Shown here piece after piece: positions 425-9,175 of a stretch of DNA of 9,293 nucleotides (its first letter is position 1; each line of letters opens with the position of its first letter). A model generated the notes under the pieces. It worked only from the letters and a program-made list of their open reading frames with translations, did no database searches and was not told the origin of the DNA. The stretch lies in the IMG/VR virus record IMGVR_UViG_2554235177_000006, one strand, 5' to 3'. A program made the translations under genes and the position numbers. Source of the stretch: a virus. Taxonomy: Duplodnaviria > Heunggongvirae > Uroviricota > Caudoviricetes.

Positions 425-1483
425 GTGCGGGTATTACTTCGACCTGTTCTGGTACCGGAACTTGGGCTGGTGGTGCTAAAACCGGGCCGTGAATCCATGC
501 CGGTATTCCACAATACCCGGGTACTGGTGGAGCCGGAACCGAAAAGCATGCGTAATCTGTCGTCCGGGGTCGTTCCTGCCGTTCGCCAGCCGCTGGCGGA
601 GGATAAATCATTACTGCCATTTTTCAGCGACGAACGAGTGATTCGTGCTGCTGGTGGCGCTGGCGCATTGTCTGACTGGTTACTGCGCCATGTTAAATCC
701 TGCCAGTGGCCACACGGCGATTATCACCACAGTGAAACCGTCATTCACCGTTATGGTACCGGCGCAATGGTGTTGTGCTGGCACTGCGACAACCAGCTGC
801 GCGACCAGACCTCCGAATCACTCGGGCAACTTGCTCACCAAAACCTGTCTGCATGGATGATTGACGTCATACGCCATGCAATGAATGGCTCGCAGGAACG
901 GGAATTATCGCTGGCTGAATTATCCTGGTGGGCGGTCCGCAATCAGGTGGCGGACGCGCTACCGGAAGCGGTATTACGTCGTTCGCTGGGGTTGCGTGCG
1001 GAAAAAATCCGCTCAATGTACCGTGAAAGCGACATCGTACCGGGAGAGCAGACCGCCACCAGCATACTGAAACAGCGCACAAAAAATCTTGCGCCGCTGC
1101 CTCACGCCCACCAGCAACAGAACCCACCACAGGAAAAGACGGTGGTCAGCATTGCCGTTGATCCGGAATCTCCGGCTCAGTATCTCCAGCGCCAGAAACC
1201 ACAACGGGAAGAGATGCCTGTATACACGCGCTGGGTAAAAACGCAGAAATGCATGACGTGTGGCAATCAGGCAGATGATCCGCATCACATCATTGGTCAT
1301 GGACTGGGAGGGATGGGAACAAAGGCTGACGATTTGTTTGTTATTCCGCTGTGTCGTAAATGCCATAACGAACTACACGCCGGGGTAAAAGATTTTGAAG
1401 AAAAACACGGTAGTCAGTTGTTGTTGCTGATTCGTTTTTTAATGCACGCGAGAAATTCGGGTGTTCTGAAGTGGAAAGCATAA
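425..1483 (+). CDS. DUF968/YdfU-like prophage protein with C-terminal HNH-type Cys/His motif (putative nuclease)
   Basis: GTG start 5 nt after GGAGG; 352 aa. C-terminus reads CMTCGNQADDPHHIIGHGLGG...LCRKCHNELH, i.e. CxxC...HH...CxxCH, the HNH pattern. Overall resemblance to Rac/Qin YdfU is from memory; position directly upstream of rusA fits the nin region. Confidence 0.65.
   Translation: MRVLLRPVLVPELGLVVLKPGRESMPVFHNTRVLVEPEPKSMRNLSSGVVPAVRQPLAEDKSLLPFFSDERVIRAAGGAGALSDWLLRHVKSCQWPHGDYHHSETVIHRYGTGAMVLCWHCDNQLRDQTSESLGQLAHQNLSAWMIDVIRHAMNGSQERELSLAELSWWAVRNQVADALPEAVLRRSLGLRAEKIRSMYRESDIVPGEQTATSILKQRTKNLAPLPHAHQQQNPPQEKTVVSIAVDPESPAQYLQRQKPQREEMPVYTRWVKTQKCMTCGNQADDPHHIIGHGLGGMGTKADDLFVIPLCRKCHNELHAGVKDFEEKHGSQLLLLIRFLMHARNSGVLKWKA
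466..473 (+). other. Chi octamer GCTGGTGG
   Basis: Exact match read in sequence. Confidence 0.9.
650..657 (+). other. Chi octamer GCTGGTGG
   Basis: Exact match read in sequence. Confidence 0.9.
1056..1063 (-). other. Chi octamer (CCACCAGC on + strand)
   Basis: Exact reverse-complement match. Confidence 0.9.
1108..1115 (-). other. Chi octamer (CCACCAGC on + strand)
   Basis: Exact reverse-complement match. Confidence 0.9.
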
Positions 1484-1852
1484 ATGACCGAACGCATAGA
1501 ATTTGTTTTGCCTTACTCGCCGACGGTGAACACTTACTGGCGACGCCGTGGCAGCACATATTTTGTATCAAAAGCCGGGGAGCGTTATCGCCGGGCAGTG
1601 GCGCTTATTGTTCGCCAGCAGCGACTGAAATTAAGCCTGTCCGGACGGCTGGCAATAAAAATTATTGCAGAGCCACCGGATAAGCGTCGTCGTGACCTGG
1701 ACAATATTCTGAAAGCACCACTGGATGCGCTGACGCACGCGGGGTTGTTAATGGACGATGAGCAGTTTGATGAAATCAATATTGTACGTGGCCAGCCAGT
1801 ATCTGGTGGACGGCTGGAGATAAGAATTACAGAGGTGGGTGTGCATGAATAA
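1484..1852 (+). CDS. rusA: Crossover junction endodeoxyribonuclease RusA (Holliday junction resolvase)
   Basis: 122 aa; shares the RRRDLDN catalytic-region motif and the GGRLE(I/L)xITE(V/M)G C-terminus with E. coli RusA (120 aa). ATG immediately follows the upstream stop (TAAATG). Confidence 0.9.
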   Translation: MTERIEFVLPYSPTVNTYWRRRGSTYFVSKAGERYRRAVALIVRQQRLKLSLSGRLAIKIIAEPPDKRRRDLDNILKAPLDALTHAGLLMDDEQFDEINIVRGQPVSGGRLEIRITEVGVHE

Positions 1853-2534
1853 CCAGTATTTACAGTTTGTTCGTGAGCAACTCATGATTGCCACTGCAGA
1901 TCTCAGTGGGTCGACAAAATGCCAGCTGGAAGCCTGGCAGGAAAATGCCCTGTTCGATACAGGGCGTTACAGACGCAAAAAAATTCGTTACCGCGATGAG
2001 GTAACCGGAAAAATGATCACGCGGGATAATCCCCCGATCCAGGGTAAACAATCACTGGCGAAAGGCTCATCAATTGCGCTGGTCAGTCCTGTTGAGTTTG
2101 CAACATCATCGTGGCGGCGTGCTGTTCTGGAACTGGAAGAACATCAGAAGGCGTGGTTGTTGTGGTGTTATGGCGGAAACATTTGCTGGGAGCATCAGAT
2201 CGCGATAACGCAGTGGGGGTGGAGTGAATTTAAAACTCAGTCCGGCTCCAGAAAAATTGCAGTGAAAACGCTGGAGCGTGTGAAGAAGTTGATCTGGCTG
2301 GCGGCACAGGATGTCAGAGGATGGGTTACCGGGTGTGAGGTCTACCAGAGACAGGAGCTTGCCAGACTGTGTGGAGTTAAGCCTGATAACTGGAGCCATA
2401 ATTATGCGAACTACTGGCGTGAGATGTGCGATATTTTTAAGCGCCTCGATAGAGAATCCTTGATTTGCTCCGTGAAAATAAGAGCGCAACAAAAAGCGAC
2501 CTTTTCACGACGAGATATTGCAAAAGTCAATTAA
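1845..2534 (+). CDS. Putative late-gene antiterminator Q (QuuQ-like family), identity by position
   Basis: 229-aa ORF whose ATG overlaps the rusA stop (ATGAATAA); lies between rusA and a strong intrinsic terminator, upstream of the lysis genes, exactly where Q sits in lambdoid phages. Not lambda-Q-like in sequence (no obvious zinc finger); family assignment unverified. Confidence 0.5.
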   Translation: MNNQYLQFVREQLMIATADLSGSTKCQLEAWQENALFDTGRYRRKKIRYRDEVTGKMITRDNPPIQGKQSLAKGSSIALVSPVEFATSSWRRAVLELEEHQKAWLLWCYGGNICWEHQIAITQWGWSEFKTQSGSRKIAVKTLERVKKLIWLAAQDVRGWVTGCEVYQRQELARLCGVKPDNWSHNYANYWREMCDIFKRLDRESLICSVKIRAQQKATFSRRDIAKVN

Positions 2535-2593
2535 ATCGCGTATGTTTCGTATAAATCTGATATTTTGCCGATTTTGTACGTGATGGCAAAGTA

Positions 2594-2623
2594 AGAAAAA
2601 ACCACCGCCAGGTGGTTTTTTTT
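2594..2623 (+). terminator. Rho-independent terminator (tR'-like) downstream of Q
   Basis: A-run, perfect 7-bp stem AACCACC/GGTGGTT (2600-2606 / 2611-2617) with 4-nt loop, then T8 run. Likely ends the short constitutive late-promoter transcript. Confidence 0.7.
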
Positions 2624-2655
2624 ATGTCCGAAAATCGCGTCAGTACAGTAAACGC

Positions 2656-2663
2656 GCTGGTGG
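2656..2663 (+). other. Chi octamer GCTGGTGG
   Basis: Exact match read in sequence. Confidence 0.9.
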
Positions 2664-2746
2664 TTGCGAATACGGGTCTTTCAGCTTGCCGGCTTTTTCG
2701 ACAAGAGTTATTGGTATGTCACGTTAACCGGAAAAGGGAAAAAGAC

Positions 2747-2944
2747 ATGCTAAAACAGCAGGATATGACAGAAGCCGCCAGAGTGGTGTTTAATGAATTA
2801 AGCGTTACCGACCCGGCGACAGTCAGGGAGATTGCACAGAATACTTACCTTTCACGCGAACGCTGCCAGTTAATACTGACCCAGCTTGTTATGGCGGGTC
2901 TGGCAGACTATCAGTTTGGTTGTTACAGACACCTTCAGTCCTGA
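2747..2944 (+). CDS. Hypothetical small protein (65 aa), possibly helix-turn-helix; alternative start at ATG 2624 would give 106 aa
   Basis: ORF in the Q-S cargo region; ATG 2747 follows a purine-rich AAGGGAAAAAG stretch. Segment TVREIAQNTYLSRERCQLILTQL looks HTH-like by eye. Start ambiguous. Confidence 0.4.
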   Translation: MLKQQDMTEAARVVFNELSVTDPATVREIAQNTYLSRERCQLILTQLVMAGLADYQFGCYRHLQS

Positions 2945-2956
2945 AGGCTTTTTTAT
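2932..2956 (+). terminator. Putative intrinsic terminator after the 2747-2944 ORF
   Basis: 6-bp stem CCTTCA/TGAAGG with 4-nt loop, then CTTTTTTATTT; overlaps the stop codon of the preceding ORF. Confidence 0.5.
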
Positions 2957-2972
2957 TTGTGGTAAATGGGCG

Positions 2973-2980
2973 GCTGGTGG
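2973..2980 (+). other. Chi octamer GCTGGTGG
   Basis: Exact match read in sequence. Confidence 0.9.
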
Positions 2981-3257
2981 GTGTGGTGGTTGTTGCTTTC
3001 CCGTTGCTGAAAAAGAAAACGCCAGACTGTTAGCCGGGTATCAGTTAGCGGGAGAAATTTTTAAATACTTCACAATTCAGGCGGTTGACTGTTGTCTGGT
3101 TTGCGGGGAGTTTGTTAAAAGAAACTGGCATGGTGAATCCCCCTGTGCGGAGGGGCAATCAGCGAGTAGGTATATGGGATAATCGCGGATTCAGGTGCTG
3201 GTACTGAATTCACCGGGAGGCACCCGGCACCATGCAATGGCACATAGCGCCACTCTC

Positions 3258-3294
3258 CAGCCCCTCTCCGGAGGGGCTGTTTATATTGATTTTG
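3258..3294 (+). terminator. Intrinsic terminator (GC-rich hairpin plus T-rich tail)
   Basis: Perfect 9-bp stem CAGCCCCTC/GAGGGGCTG with TCCG loop (3258-3279), then TTTATATTGATTTTG. Confidence 0.6.
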
Positions 3295-3313
3295 TCAGAT
3301 GTGAGTAAACTCC

Positions 3314-3649
3314 TTATGGACTTTGTTGTTTTAGCCCATAAGGACATATTTGCAGAGTGCAACGGTTATTAAAGCATTCATTCAATACGTTATCTGTATT
3401 TGTAGGGCATTCCTGGCTGTTTTTGATTAAATTCCAGAATGTTTTATTGAATGGTACTACGTTGTAAATGGTTACAGGTAGCACTTTGTTATTGAGCATG
3501 ATACCTGTGTGAGTCAGTGTAAATATACTTTCAGGAGGTAAGAAAGCATCCGATTGATACCAGATTATTAATTTTATTTTACTCCATATGACTGAAAAAG
3601 ATATTCCGCATGATGGCTGGATAACTGTATCAATCACAATCCACTTCAT
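3314..3649 (-). CDS. Hypothetical protein (111 aa) in an AT-rich island, opposite to the late operon
   Basis: Clean 336-nt ORF in strongly AT-rich DNA, where stop codons are frequent, so unlikely by chance. AGGAA about 5 nt upstream of the ATG; candidate sigma70 promoter upstream on the minus strand (TTTACA, about 15-16 nt spacer, TATACT). No recognisable family. Confidence 0.4.
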
Positions 3650-3909
3650 TTAGTTTCCTTGTTTATGCCTTGCTGGTGATGTTCTGAAAAGTATAAATGA
3701 TATTTTTGATTGTAAACCATAGAGCAGAATTATTTTTCTGATGTTGTTTATTGTTTATTTAAATGCAGGGTGGTTTATATCTCGTCTTGTAGTTTATCCA
3801 TGCATATCTGCTTGATGATGAGGTTTTTATTTAAGGTATGGTTTTGTGTTTTTTCTGTATTACATGTCAGGTATTTTAAAGAATCATTTTTCAGATGGTG
3901 GAAAGAACC

Positions 3910-4098
3910 ATGGCATTTAAACACTATGATGTTGTCAGGGCGGCGTCGCCGTCAGATCTTGCGGAAAAGCTGACACATAAACTGAAAGAGGGCTGGCAGC
4001 CGTTTGGTAGTCCGGTGGCCATAACCCCTTATACCCTGATGCAGGCGATTGCAGCAGAAGGTGATGTGGTGGTCAGTGGTGCAACTGAGCCGGAGTGA
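3910..4098 (+). CDS. Small prophage protein, DUF1737-like (62 aa)
   Basis: ATG 3910 preceded by GGTGGAAAG; about 60-aa protein (MAFKHYDVVRAASPSDLAEKL...EGWQPFGSPV...) resembling, from memory, the small DUF1737 proteins found between Q and lysis genes in enterobacterial prophages. Confidence 0.55.
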   Translation: MAFKHYDVVRAASPSDLAEKLTHKLKEGWQPFGSPVAITPYTLMQAIAAEGDVVVSGATEPE

Positions 4099-4256
4099 TA
4101 CTACGTCATCGTACTGGCCCGGCATTCCAGGCCATAAAAGACGGTCTGGCAGTGGGACTAAATGCACTGACGCTGACGGATATTACCAAAAATGCAACGT
4201 ATGGCGTTGAGATAGAAAGTCTGGTGCTGGAGATAAATGCACCGGCATCATCATAA
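4095..4256 (+). CDS. Small hypothetical ORF (53 aa) possibly translationally coupled to the upstream gene
   Basis: GTG at 4095 overlaps the upstream TGA (GTGA), with GGAG just upstream; runs to TAA at 4254-4256. Below the ORF-track length cutoff; found by manual translation. Speculative. Confidence 0.3.
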
Positions 4257-4341
4257 AAAGTGAGCCAGTCAAATGGAAGGTATCGTTAAACTCACCGGTA
4301 GTGTCAGTGGGTCGTCTGAGACGCCTGCATGAGTTATCAGA

Positions 4342-4371
4342 GCCATCAGTACTTAACTGGTGGCTTTTTTA
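4342..4371 (+). terminator. Putative intrinsic terminator immediately upstream of the lysis cassette
   Basis: 8-bp stem GCCATCAG/CTGGTGGC (one G-U wobble) with 7-nt loop, then TTTTTTATTGTTG. Would insulate lysis genes from cargo-region transcription unless RNA polymerase is Q-modified. Confidence 0.5.
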
Positions 4372-4405
4372 TTGTTGTCAGCTTCCGGATAACGGGAGAC
4401 GGGGT

Positions 4406-4621
4406 ATGTACCAGATGGAAAAAATCACAACAGGTGTGTCATACACCACGTCAGCGGTGGGAACGGGCTACTGGTTCCTGCAGTTGCTGGACAGGGTTTC
4501 CCCGTCTCAGTGGGCGGCAATAGGCGTGCTGGGGAGTCTGCTGTTTGGGCTGCTGACATATCTGACTAACCTGTATTTCAAAATCAAAGAGGACCGGCGT
4601 AAGGCGGCGCGGGGAGAGTAA
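4406..4621 (+). CDS. S: Class II holin / pinholin, phage 21 S21-like, with dual start motif
   Basis: 71 aa from ATG 4406, with a second in-frame ATG at codon 4 (4415) giving 68 aa, the S21-71/S21-68 arrangement. Core GYWFLQ...[15 protein letters not shown]...[11 protein letters not shown](K/R)[10 protein letters not shown] closely matches S21 as I recall it. Confidence 0.85.
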
Positions 4622-4625
4622 AGTG

Positions 4626-5516
4626 ATGAATAAAAAATATGAACTGGTTGTTAAGGGGATAAATAATTACGGGGATAAGGTTACTGTTACTGTGAAGTCG
4701 GAAGGTGACGGGCAAGCGTCGCTGTTGTTGCCAGATGTGGCGATTAGTCTTGACCGTACTGAAGGTGCCACGCTGGAGTTTTACGAAGCTGAGGCGAAAA
4801 AGCAGGCGAAGCAGTTTTTCATGGATGTTGCTGCCGGGTTATGTGAATGGAACGAACCGTTGCCGGAAAAGCGCCCCGTAATTTTAGAGGCGCAGGATGT
4901 GTTGATAACCTACAAAGGAAAGCTACCGGGAAGAATTACTTGTTCTCTGAAGATGCCGCCGTCAACACTGCGGTCAGAAAAAGATGATGTTGAATCACGT
5001 ATTGAAAAACTGGAGAGCTACGTCGTTGAGCTGAATAAGAAATGGTCGATATTGGTGCCTTCTGGCGATGAAAAGCAGTTTGCTGCGTTTGACGATTATT
5101 GTCGGAAAGTGATGAGCAGAAATCTCGCAGAGTGTTTCAGTATTCATAATGATAATTTCAGTGACCCGGAATGGGAGTGTAACCGGCCATCCTTTGTTGT
5201 ATCCGGTGATGCTGGGAAAATAACCATCTCAGAAAATGGGAAAGTAACACCTCCATCGCACCAGCACAGTGAGGAGCTCATTGAATTTGCCATTGATTAC
5301 CTGAAGAACAATAAAAAGCAGGGGCTGATGAAGCGCGTTGGCCGTTGCATGGGATATCTTCAGGTAGCCGCTGAGATTGAAGCGCTGGCCAGTGGTGCTG
5401 ATAAGGATGCAATTGTGCGGGAGGCTCTTCTTCGTGATTTTAATACTCCACCCTTTAAAAAAGTGCCGGCTTACTGGCTTCATCCGGGGCTGACTTATCT
5501 TAAAGTGCGTATTTAG
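4626..5516 (+). CDS. Hypothetical protein (296 aa) inserted between holin and endolysin; function unknown
   Basis: ATG 4626 lies 4 nt after the holin stop, with GGGGAGAG upstream; long clean ORF ending TAG 5514-5516, 36 nt before the endolysin start. No transmembrane segment or catalytic motif recognised by eye; contains a charged helical stretch (RSEKDDVESRIEKLESYVVELNKKW). Confidence 0.7.
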   Translation: MNKKYELVVKGINNYGDKVTVTVKSEGDGQASLLLPDVAISLDRTEGATLEFYEAEAKKQAKQFFMDVAAGLCEWNEPLPEKRPVILEAQDVLITYKGKLPGRITCSLKMPPSTLRSEKDDVESRIEKLESYVVELNKKWSILVPSGDEKQFAAFDDYCRKVMSRNLAECFSIHNDNFSDPEWECNRPSFVVSGDAGKITISENGKVTPPSHQHSEELIEFAIDYLKNNKKQGLMKRVGRCMGYLQVAAEIEALASGADKDAIVREALLRDFNTPPFKKVPAYWLHPGLTYLKVRI

Positions 5517-5552
5517 TGGGCCAGGGACAGCGGCTGAATATTTAATATATCC

Positions 5553-6086
5553 ATGAACACCAAAATCAAATACGGCCTGTCGGCTGCCGTTCTGGCGCTG
5601 ATTGCCGCTGGTGCGCCTGCGCCTGACATTCTCGACCAGTTTCTGGATGAAAAGGAAGGCAACCACACCACGGCATACCGTGATGGTGCAGGTATCTGGA
5701 CCATCTGCCGTGGTGCCATCATGGTGGATGGCAAACCTGTCGTTCCGGGCATGAAGTTGTCGAAGGAAAAATGCGACCAGGTTAACGCCATTGAGCGTGA
5801 TAAAGCGCTGGCGTGGGTGGAGAAAAACATCAGAGTGCCGCTGACCGAACCCCAGAAAGCGGGGATCGCGTCATTCTGTCCGTACAACATTGGTCCCGGT
5901 AAGTGTTTCCCGTCGACGTTTTACAGACGAATTAATGCTGGTGATCGAAAAGGTGCCTGCGAAGCGATTCGCTGGTGGATTAAGGACGGTGGCAGAGACT
6001 GCCGTATTCGTTCAAACAACTGTTACGGTCAGGTATCCCGTCGTGACCAGGAGAGCGCGCTGGCGTGCTGGGGTATCGACAGATAA
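5553..6086 (+). CDS. R: SAR endolysin (T4-lysozyme-like, GH24; R21-like)
   Basis: N-terminal weakly hydrophobic Gly/Ala-rich segment (YGLSAAVLALIAAGAPA) typical of a signal-anchor-release domain; catalytic E-x8-D-x5-T spacing in EGNHTTAYRDGAGIWT. Confidence 0.9.
   Translation: MNTKIKYGLSAAVLALIAAGAPAPDILDQFLDEKEGNHTTAYRDGAGIWTICRGAIMVDGKPVVPGMKLSKEKCDQVNAIERDKALAWVEKNIRVPLTEPQKAGIASFCPYNIGPGKCFPSTFYRRINAGDRKGACEAIRWWIKDGGRDCRIRSNNCYGQVSRRDQESALACWGIDR
5971..5978 (+). other. Chi octamer GCTGGTGG
   Basis: Exact match read in sequence. Confidence 0.9.
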
Positions 6087-6242
6087 GCAGAATATTTTGC
6101 TGAAAAATGAGGAATGGCCACGCGGGCGGATAACACGAAATCCTGCGAACTGGCGAAACGTAAGTGAATAAAAGTAAAAACCCCGTTTGTTGGCACCAAG
6201 CGAGGTTTTGTGTTTCTGACCTTGAGTAAGGCAAGGGAGAAC

Positions 6243-6425
6243 ATGGCGAAGTGTAAACGAATTCTGTTGAGGTTGACTATGAAAAATGGCCTTGAACTGA
6301 AAGCGCCTGTAACTGATGACATCAGCAGAGCACTGGCTTTTGCCATTAAGTGGGTGGCGGTCGGTGTTGCTGTGTCCCCGATGCTGTATGGGCTGGCAAA
6401 ACTGGTCATTGCGTTGAAATCGTGA
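6243..6425 (+). CDS. Small putative membrane protein (60 aa) between endolysin and Rz
   Basis: ATG 6243 preceded by AAGGGAG; C-terminal hydrophobic stretch [27 protein letters not shown]. The stop is followed directly by the strong RBS of the next small ORF. Confidence 0.35.
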
Positions 6426-6439
6426 AGGGAGGATTAAGC

Positions 6440-6571
6440 ATGTCAGACAAACTCATAACGCTGGCGAAGATCCTCTGTGTAATTGTCGGCATTTCATTTT
6501 CACTAATGCTGGTTGCTCTTTTTCTTTCCATGGCCTGGATGATGTTGTCTTCGTCGGGGTTGCTGGGGTGA
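6440..6571 (+). CDS. Small putative single-pass membrane protein (43 aa) coupled to Rz
   Basis: Strong RBS GGGAGGA 7 nt upstream of ATG 6440; hydrophobic core [26 protein letters not shown]; stop TGA overlaps the GTG start of Rz (GTGA). Confidence 0.45.
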
Positions 6572-7041
6572 ACATAAACCGAATGCTTTCCGCGTTTATC
6601 GTTATTCTGCTGGTGGCCTGTGGTGCGCTGTGGATGGCAACAGACCATTACCGTGATAACGCGATTACCTACAAAGCGCAGCGCGATAACAAAGCCAGTG
6701 AACTGAAGCTGGCGAACGCAACCATTACTGATATGCAGGTGCGCCAGCGCGATGTTGCTGCGCTCGATGCAAAATACTCGAGGGAATTAGCCGATGCGAG
6801 AGCTGAAAATGAAACTCTTCGCGCTGACGTTGCCGCTGGTCGTAAGCGCCTGCGGATCAACGCCACCTGTCCAGGCTCCGTGCGTGAAGCCCCCACCACC
6901 TCCGGCGTGGATAATGCAACCGGCCCCCAACTGGCAGACACCGTTACACGGGATTATTTCACCCTCAGAGAGCGGCTGATGACGATGCACAAGCAACTGG
7001 AAGGGGCACAGGACTATATCCGCACTCAGTGCCTGAAATAA
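6568..7041 (+). CDS. Rz: Rz i-spanin (inner-membrane spanin subunit)
   Basis: Translation closely matches lambda Rz ([14 protein letters not shown]...DMQ(V/M)[12 protein letters not shown]...[10 protein letters not shown](M/I)TM(H/Q)KQLEG). Start either GTG 6568 (coupled) or ATG 6583. Confidence 0.9.
6609..6616 (+). other. Chi octamer GCTGGTGG
   Basis: Exact match read in sequence. Confidence 0.9.
6794..6979 (+). CDS. Rz1: Rz1 o-spanin (outer-membrane lipoprotein) embedded in Rz in the +1 frame
   Basis: 61 aa with lipobox-like LVVSAC and proline-rich [14 protein letters not shown]...WQTPL(H/N)GIISPSE, closely matching lambda Rz1. GAGGGAA upstream of ATG 6794. Confidence 0.85.
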
Positions 7042-7351
7042 GTTTTGTTGATGCGCCGTATCGTCGCTATATTCCCTCATTAACAGAGACCGCAGCCCGA
7101 CAGGGAGACTCCTCTGCGCGAGTGTGCGGGGATAATTAAAAACGATGCACACCGGGTTTTTACCGCGTTAATGATTCGCGGGTTTATCCCGGTGCGATGG
7201 TGGAAGAAACAGGAAGCTGTATTACAGAAAGTGCTACTACTGTATCCCGATGCGATGTATGTAATGTGAGTCAGATAATGGCACAGGATGTGGTGATGTG
7301 GCAGTCTGGAACACAGGATATATTGTCAGAATAAGACCCGTAGGAATAAAA

Positions 7352-8629: not shown

Positions 8630-9175
8630 ATGAAGGTTAATAAAAAGAAACTTGCCGAAATTTTCAACGTGGATCCGCGAACGATTGAACGCTGGCAGTC
8701 TCAGGGACTCCCTTGCGTCTCCGGAGGTGGTAAGGGCGTTGAATCTGTATTTGATACCGCCATGGCAATTCAGTGGTATGCGCAGAGGGAAGCTGATATC
8801 GAAAATGAAAAACTCCGTAAAGAGGTTGAGGATTACAGGGCTGCCAGTGAGGCAGATCTCCAGCCTGGGACTATTGAGTACGAACGCCATCGACTTACGC
8901 GTGCGCAGGCCGACGCACAGGAGCTGAAAAATGCCAGAGACTCCGCTGAAGTGGTGGAAACCGCATTCTGTACTTTCGTGCTGTCACGGATCGCAGGTGA
9001 AATTGCCAGTATTCTTGACGGGATCCCTCTCTCGGTACAGCGGCGTTTTCCGGAACTGGAAAACCGACATGTTGATTTCCTGAAACGGGATATCATCAAA
9101 GCCATGAACAAAGCAGCCGCGCTGGATGAACTGATACCGGGGTTGCTGAGTGAATATATCGAACAGTCAGATTGA
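8630..9175 (+). CDS. nu1: Terminase small subunit Nu1
   Basis: 181 aa; C-terminal two-thirds (ADIENEKLR...[59 protein letters not shown]...) near-identical to lambda Nu1 as I recall it; N-terminal DNA-binding part diverged. Confidence 0.95.

Follow-up and report, generated by a model that had tools for sequence, protein, structure and literature searches.

The window analyzed here, the whole 9,293-nt stretch of IMG/VR virus record IMGVR_UViG_2554235177_000006, is the late region of an Escherichia coli lambdoid prophage, and its features are collected in Table 1. The holin gene is labeled "class II holin family protein" by PGAP, and the N-terminal stretch of the SAR endolysin is rich in Gly and Ala (YGLSAAVLALIAAGAPA). 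Upstream of the lysis cassette, the IraM-like gene resembles a typical acquired cargo gene, and the DUF1737 fragment is the N-terminal remnant of a NanS-p/YjhS-type esterase gene of approximately 650 aa, the full form of which fills this place in Stx phages. Downstream of the endolysin, the two small ORFs at the R-Rz junction encode hydrophobic C-terminal or central segments, indicating that this junction carries inserts too.

Table 1 Features of the window, with the parts of the 296-aa protein listed below its gene
Feature	Position	Strand	Remarks
DUF968	425-1483		
RusA	1484-1852		
Antiterminator Q	to 2534		
Hairpin with T-run, tR'-like in look	2596-2621		Directly after Q
IraM-like anti-adapter gene	3314-3649	-	In a 31-34% GC island, interval between Q and the lysis genes
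DUF1737 fragment	3895-4098	+	Pseudogene in PGAP
Second hairpin, 12 pairs, with T-run	4339-4367		39 nt 5' of the holin start
S21-type class II holin (pinholin-like), 71 aa	4406-4621	+	PF04971, E value 7e-33; phrog_9876/phrog_20
Long-form YdfR-family protein, 296 aa	4626-5516	+	phrog_1085, E value 3e-190
N-terminal DUF1327 domain, aa 1-75	4626-4850	+	Three beta-strands and a long helix, pLDDT 70-91
Linker, aa 76-118	4851-4979	+	Predicted disordered (pLDDT < 40), basic (pI 9.0)
Helical/coiled-coil segment, aa 119-179	4980-5162	+	Helices 122-143 and 149-171, pLDDT 52-62
Conserved C-terminal core, aa 180-296	5163-5513	+	Three short strands and four helices
R21-type SAR endolysin, 177 aa	5553-6086	+	PF00959, E value 2e-24; "lysozyme" in PGAP
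Two small ORFs at the R-Rz junction	6243-6425, 6440-6571	+	PHROG 1115 and 4906 ("unknown function")
Rz i-spanin, end of the lysis cassette	6568-7041	+	PF03245, E value 2e-47; phrog_13
Rz1 o-spanin, embedded in Rz	6794-6979	+	Lipobox VVSAC
TonB_C lipoprotein-like gene, 108 aa	7352-7678	+	3' of Rz/Rz1
Nu1	8630-9175		

The gene under study occupies the space between the holin gene (S) and the endolysin gene (R). It is 891 nt long including the stop codon (ATG at 4626, stop at 5514-5516) and begins 4 nt after the holin TAA (4619-4621), and its end is separated from the endolysin ATG by 36 nt, in agreement with the coordinates and gaps given in an earlier note made from the sequence alone. A Shine-Dalgarno-like motif, GGAGAG, is located 8 nt 5' of the ATG within the 3' end of the holin gene and is likely the ribosome-binding site of the ORF. 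A Kyte-Doolittle scan (19-residue mean) gave a hydropathy maximum of 0.75, so the scan found no transmembrane segment; a signal peptide was not found either, as the note had stated, and the protein is therefore predicted to be cytoplasmic. The note had also described the gene as somewhat AT-richer than its neighbors, which is right, if modestly so. The G + C content of the ORF is 46.1%, compared with 54.2% for the holin gene and 54.5% for the endolysin gene, and the corresponding GC3 values are 46.8%, 68.1%, and 60.1%.

A crude consensus scan, which is suggestive only, showed no sigma-70-like promoter site on the + strand at 2500-7300. It can thus reasonably be inferred that the ORF would be transcribed together with the late operon, as the earlier note had proposed for the lysis genes. 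The same scan showed no strong terminator-like hairpin where the ORF ends; the one such hairpin in that stretch, a weak stem of 7 pairs (5475-5492), lies within the ORF. A minus-strand ORF at 5229-5666 was rejected as a real antisense gene, since it has no family match and does not resemble the convergent ORFs found at other loci.

The family of the protein was determined by profile and pairwise searches. PF07041 (DUF1327) was matched with 137.9 bits against a cut-off of 25 (E value, 1.3e-40; aa 1-100 on profile positions 1-88 of 93), and PHROG 1085 ("unknown function") was matched end to end (aa 1-296 on profile positions 1-296). BLASTP analysis demonstrated 49% identity over 74 aa with YdfR of E. 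coli K-12 (window aa 5-74; E value, 4e-20), and RefSeq names the ORF "YdfR family protein". Judged by sequence, the ORF encodes a long version of a family already on record, YdfR/DUF1327, in the slot that this family usually occupies. In K-12, the prototype ydfR is flanked by essQ and rrrQ in the Qin prophage, an order equivalent to that of S, the ORF, and R in the window. The view that this is an undescribed insertion was thus not borne out. The same is true of the premise that the holin and endolysin genes of phage 21-type cassettes are contiguous, because the slot is filled in Qin, in many other prophages, and in BP-4795 (114 aa), Stx2 phage 86 (268 aa), Stx2_95 (329 aa), and PhiR5_1 (211 aa). 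A survey of cassettes agreed with the suggestion of a variable slot between conserved S and R genes, as similarity to other cassettes is lost at about 4630 and regained at 5547.

Membership in a known family did not bring a defined function with it: the confident match to a family of defined function that would have refuted the view of the earlier note was not found. NCBIfam gave no match for the ORF, and no similarity to a known holin, antiholin, or lysis regulator or accessory protein was found in Pfam, PHROGs, or NCBIfam. A literature search found no papers using the term "YdfR family" and a single, incidental mention of DUF1327, and the gene goes undiscussed in a survey of Stx-phage lysis cassettes (PMC8136144).

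Identical copies of the locus are common in public data. DNA 100% identical to the S-R region occurs in many complete E. coli genomes (e.g., NZ_CP023820), the identical 296-codon frame is intact in hundreds of genomes, and the exact 296-aa sequence is present in at least 1000 public contigs as "YdfR family protein" or "DUF1327 domain-containing protein". In window-identical genomes, PGAP annotates only 4626-4961 (aa 1-112) as a pseudogene, "YdfR family, partial, missing C-terminus", and gives no feature for 4962-5552; in other PGAP runs, the 296-aa protein is annotated as intact. Because the frame is intact and conserved, the pseudogene call is an annotation artifact.

The 33-kDa protein of 296 aa is built of four parts, in order the DUF1327 domain, a linker predicted to be disordered, a coiled-coil segment, and the C-terminal core, which is conserved (C-core; Table 1). 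The domain boundaries were taken from alignments and from two AlphaFold runs, the first with 38 close sequences (pLDDT 53.8) and the second with Salmonella relatives added (pLDDT 65.7). The N-domain is acidic (pI 4.8). Short forms of the family, such as ORF47 of BP-4795, end within the linker, where the PGAP "partial" feature stops too. The coiled-coil segment is rich in indels in alignments and is facultative in the family, some architectures being without it. The C-core reached a pLDDT of 81-94 over aa 200-270 and contains eleven invariant residues (L226, G239, R240, L245, Q246, A248, P276, K278, W284, P287, and Y291) within the motifs GRxMGxLQxAAE and NPPFK...W..PG..YL. Against diverged homologues, dN/dS was 0.17-0.35 for the C-core and 0.14-0.75 for the N-terminal part, with N-domain values of 0.5-0.75 among close relatives and 0.14 in comparison with K-12. 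The C-core is the most constrained part of the protein and is under purifying selection.

Profile and structure searches, which the earlier note had proposed, placed the protein in DUF1327 and PHROG 1085 and yielded no relative of the C-core. In Pfam, no match to the C-core was found in any of 83 family members at E values up to 1, where only DUF1327 and weak coiled-coil-type matches appeared. The best hit of a sequence-profile search of the PDB had an E value of 0.12 and was a 39-residue chance match to oligopeptidase A, and a Foldseek comparison of both AlphaFold models with the PDB gave nothing below an E value of 0.27. Low-probability Foldseek rows for the N-domain (dsRBD proteins, NTF2-like or curved-sheet designs) were not counted as evidence. 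By these searches, the C-core is an undescribed domain that resembles nothing in Pfam or among PDB sequences and folds.

When 1.84 billion representative proteins were searched exhaustively by HMMER with aa 116-296, 25 relatives were recovered, every one a member of this family. The distant relatives found by profile search are Salmonella enterica prophage proteins with the same layout, and profile-profile comparison related their N-domain to DUF1327 with a probability of 92% (E value, 6e-7). The reading frame is kept in homologues down to about 27% identity, and both Salmonella and a more distant lambdoid lineage, the third, retain the fusion of N-domain and C-core at 25-30% overall identity. 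Since Escherichia and Salmonella relatives share the fused layout, the fused form is considered ancestral. Homology of the short forms to the long forms stops at window position 4961 or 5038 and resumes at 5547, indicating that the short forms are deletion derivatives. YdfR of K-12 (b1555, DUF1327; 103 aa, Qin cryptic prophage) resembles the window protein in slot, N-domain, and cytoplasmic location. In contrast, the linker, the coiled coil, and the 117-aa C-core are missing from it, its final 30 residues are of unrelated sequence, and the window protein is nearly three times as long. Because the fusion recurs across lineages, the K-12 protein looks like a truncated form when the sequences are compared.

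The surroundings of the gene differ among the three lineages. In the Salmonella prophages, the homologue follows Q and HicAB and lies just 5' of the holin gene, which belongs to one of two holin families, both with SAR-like lysozymes; the HicA/HicB toxin-antitoxin pair is found between Q and the homologue (L014-L019, about 3400-4500). In the third lineage, the homologue lies one gene upstream of an S21-type holin. The long form is thus located at the 5' side of a small-holin/SAR-endolysin cassette in all three lineages.

Other arrangements of the modules were also found. A stand-alone 185-aa protein composed of the coiled coil and the core is encoded between S and R in E. coli, and in Stx phages the modules are split and swapped, with a 213-aa coiled-coil-plus-core protein followed by a separate 75-aa DUF1327 gene. 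Some E. coli members have tandem DUF1327 duplications and no C-core (P0047, P0054, and P0063). Among 80 IMG/VR loci with a near-identical core, about 40 were fused, 29 were stand-alone without DUF1327, and 11 were truncated; these loci are near-identical E. coli prophages only and thus provide architecture counts and no new contexts. Full-length S-R homologues with 70-88% identity are carried by inducible Stx phages, for example gp05 of Stx2-converting phage 86 and BCI50300 of Stx2_95 (PHROG 1085), and the Stx phage homologues differ from the window protein by indels in the middle segment, which give variants of 268, 287, 329, and 333 aa. C-module DNA was detected in 877 of 5426 complete E. 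coli genomes, including Stx-phage lysogens and ST131 isolates, the latter with near-identical copies. The C-core was present in five of 50,697 sequenced phage records, and the family locus was found in one of 100,044 species-representative genomes, as far as the pattern used for that scan could reveal.

The sole experimental lead on function is a link to RNase E, which comes from one paper and concerns the short K-12 protein only. Residues 1-72 of K-12 YdfR were recovered in a two-hybrid screen with RNase E (Gopel et al., RNA Biol 2026, PMC13232886). The full-length K-12 protein co-purified Rne 1-598, the catalytic half, and gave a two-hybrid signal with Rne 1-597 only (PMC13232886). Eluates of Strep-YdfR contained DNase-resistant nucleic acid, for which the authors could not exclude a contaminant as the RNA carrier; overproduction changed few transcripts and left growth unaffected, and ydfR was nearly silent in K-12 under standard growth, with almost no reads (PMC13232886). 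The 49%-identical stretch of the window protein corresponds to the fragment reported to bind RNase E. A Keio ydfR mutant that appears in the supplementary lists of an envelope screen (PMC3879167) was discounted, as its kan cassette could drive the downstream lysozyme gene.

The reading that we tentatively prefer, with a probability of roughly 0.3, is that the long form acts late and in the cytoplasm as an accessory protein, with the N-domain docking it on RNase E and/or RNA and the C-core exerting its effect. The protein would be made with the lysis proteins, yet stand outside the lysis machinery. By analogy with the first 72 residues of K-12 YdfR, the N-domain might attach the protein to RNA and/or to the catalytic half of the host's RNase E, the coiled coil might oligomerize the protein, and the C-core might supply the actual activity or a second contact. 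The expected outcome would be a change in RNA decay late in infection, such as protection of the long late transcript or altered turnover of host mRNA, and K-12 YdfR and other short forms would be truncated remnants reduced to the docking domain. Conservation of the fusion across three lineages and the adjacent, swapped modules of the Stx phages both argue that the modules work together. Functional phages carry only a short form (BP-4795) or other variants, so lysis does not need the long form.

Two properties of the N-domain argue against the docking model: its acidity is unusual for an RNA binder, and dN/dS values of 0.5-0.75 among close relatives indicate a fast evolution that is surprising if the partner is as conserved as RNase E. 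In addition, the C-module occurs without DUF1327 at the 29 stand-alone IMG/VR loci, which suggests that the core can act, or at least persist, without the proposed docking domain. T7 gp0.7, T4 Srd, and phiKZ Dip are phage proteins that target RNase E, and they are early or middle products. They would share a target with the window protein only if the K-12 YdfR result transfers, and they differ from it in that their sequences are unrelated and the window gene belongs to the late operon. A more far-reaching version, that long-form YdfR proteins constitute a new late-effector class in which a fast-evolving DUF1327 domain docks on the catalytic half of RNase E and a C-core with a new fold reprograms RNA decay or couples decay to holin timing in the final minutes of infection, seems to us distinctly unlikely.

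The position of the gene raises the alternative of a cytoplasmic lysis-timing regulator, which would delay or sharpen triggering by contacting either the small holin at its cytoplasmic tail or the SAR endolysin before its release. We regard this as rather unlikely. Its support is confined to the conserved neighborhood to small holins: a small-holin/SAR-endolysin cassette adjoins the gene in all three lineages, and all associated endolysins have Gly/Ala-rich, SAR-like N-termini. The E. coli gene directly follows S with its ribosome-binding site inside S, the Salmonella gene is placed just upstream of two different holin families, and a single gene separates the homologue from the holin in the third lineage. 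Given that the ORF has no promoter-like site of its own, the protein would also be made at the same time as S and R. In function, such a protein could be likened to T4 RIII or P1 LydB, cytoplasmic antiholin-type regulators that are small to medium in size, soluble, holin-adjacent, and made at the same time. Adjacency is the only feature that they share with the window protein, and no sequence or fold similarity to them was detected.

Further points weigh against regulation of lysis timing. No known holin, antiholin, or lysis regulator resembles the protein in Pfam, PHROGs, or NCBIfam, many cassettes are without the gene, and the gene is not always found at the same place with respect to the holin; a convergent ORF may separate it from the next lysis gene in Salmonella and Stx phage 86. 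The interval between Q and the lysis genes moreover takes up cargo in lambdoid phages generally (stx, nanS-p, HicAB, and IraM), and adjacency alone is therefore weak evidence.

The highly mosaic nature of the slot, whose modules may be exchanged, separated, duplicated, or missing between conserved S and R genes, would also suit a moron-type cargo gene for phage-phage conflict, i.e., superinfection exclusion, anti-phage defense, or anti-defense. The lower G + C content of the gene, the very narrow family (25 of 1.84 billion proteins; one of 100,044 species genomes), and the small conserved convergent phrog_1853 ORF that accompanies the gene in some phages are consistent with this, and a fast-evolving N-domain beside a conserved core would fit a variable recognition part joined to a constant effector. 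The defense or anti-defense role raised in the earlier note nevertheless appears fairly improbable, and nothing points there specifically. PADLOC-DB 2.0 defense models gave no significant match (best, PbeC; E value, 0.018; 11 bits; 60 coiled-coil residues), and no sequence or fold similarity was found to any structure solved in the PDB, which would include solved anti-defense proteins. The classic moron layout with its own promoter and terminator was not found by the crude, suggestive consensus search, and the gene is probably silent in lysogens, which argues against a defense that protects the lysogen. Reads from ydfR were also nearly absent in K-12 under standard growth (PMC13232886).

The RefSeq pseudogene call implies a remnant in decay or without function, or else two neighboring genes joined by accident, and the "partial" feature with its unannotated rest, the 11 truncated IMG/VR loci, the five phage records with a C-core, and other remnants in the same prophage such as the DUF1737 fragment would agree with it, but this is highly improbable and is contradicted by purifying selection (core dN/dS well below 1) and conservation across genera (the fusion kept at 25-30% identity in Salmonella and the third lineage), as well as by the intact identical frame in hundreds of genomes, its intact annotation in other PGAP runs, and the long form in inducible Stx2 phage 86.

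What is new here is the conserved C-terminal domain, the ancestral status of the long form together with the apparent truncation of the K-12 protein, the split and swapped modules, and the pseudogene artifact in RefSeq. Hundreds of RefSeq genomes dismiss the gene as a pseudogene. The operon to which it belongs also drives the release of Shiga toxin. With the long form recognized as ancestral, the C-core as an undescribed domain, and the N-domain as the counterpart of an RNase E-binding fragment, this insertion has become a well-defined object that simple genetics can address. Should the RNase E link extend to the long form, host RNA decay manipulated by a temperate phage would have a new example; otherwise, the gene would be one of many accessory ORFs in lambdoid late regions. 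If the late-effector reading is true, lysis and late gene expression, that of stx-linked transcripts included, would be subject to a further layer of control by RNA turnover.

Two neighboring gene types were also noted. A convergent ORF of approximately 100 aa belonging to PHROG 1853 ("unknown function") lies directly 3' of the YdfR-family gene in Stx2 phage 86 (L003, 2644-2958, minus strand) and in a Salmonella prophage (L018, 5771-6091, minus strand). The two ORFs share 41% identity (E value, 3e-27), PHROG 1853 is absent from the window, and unrelated small convergent ORFs occupy this position in other loci; the ORF may be a partner gene or mark a second cargo slot. The 108-aa protein encoded 3' of Rz/Rz1 has a lipoprotein-type signal (MKRRLLLLFLLSVLAVGC) and a TonB C-terminal domain, and similar genes are found at three other loci (L008, L010, and L101). 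Its family is labeled "Rz-like spanin" in PHROGs, probably from position only, and the product could interfere with TonB-dependent uptake.
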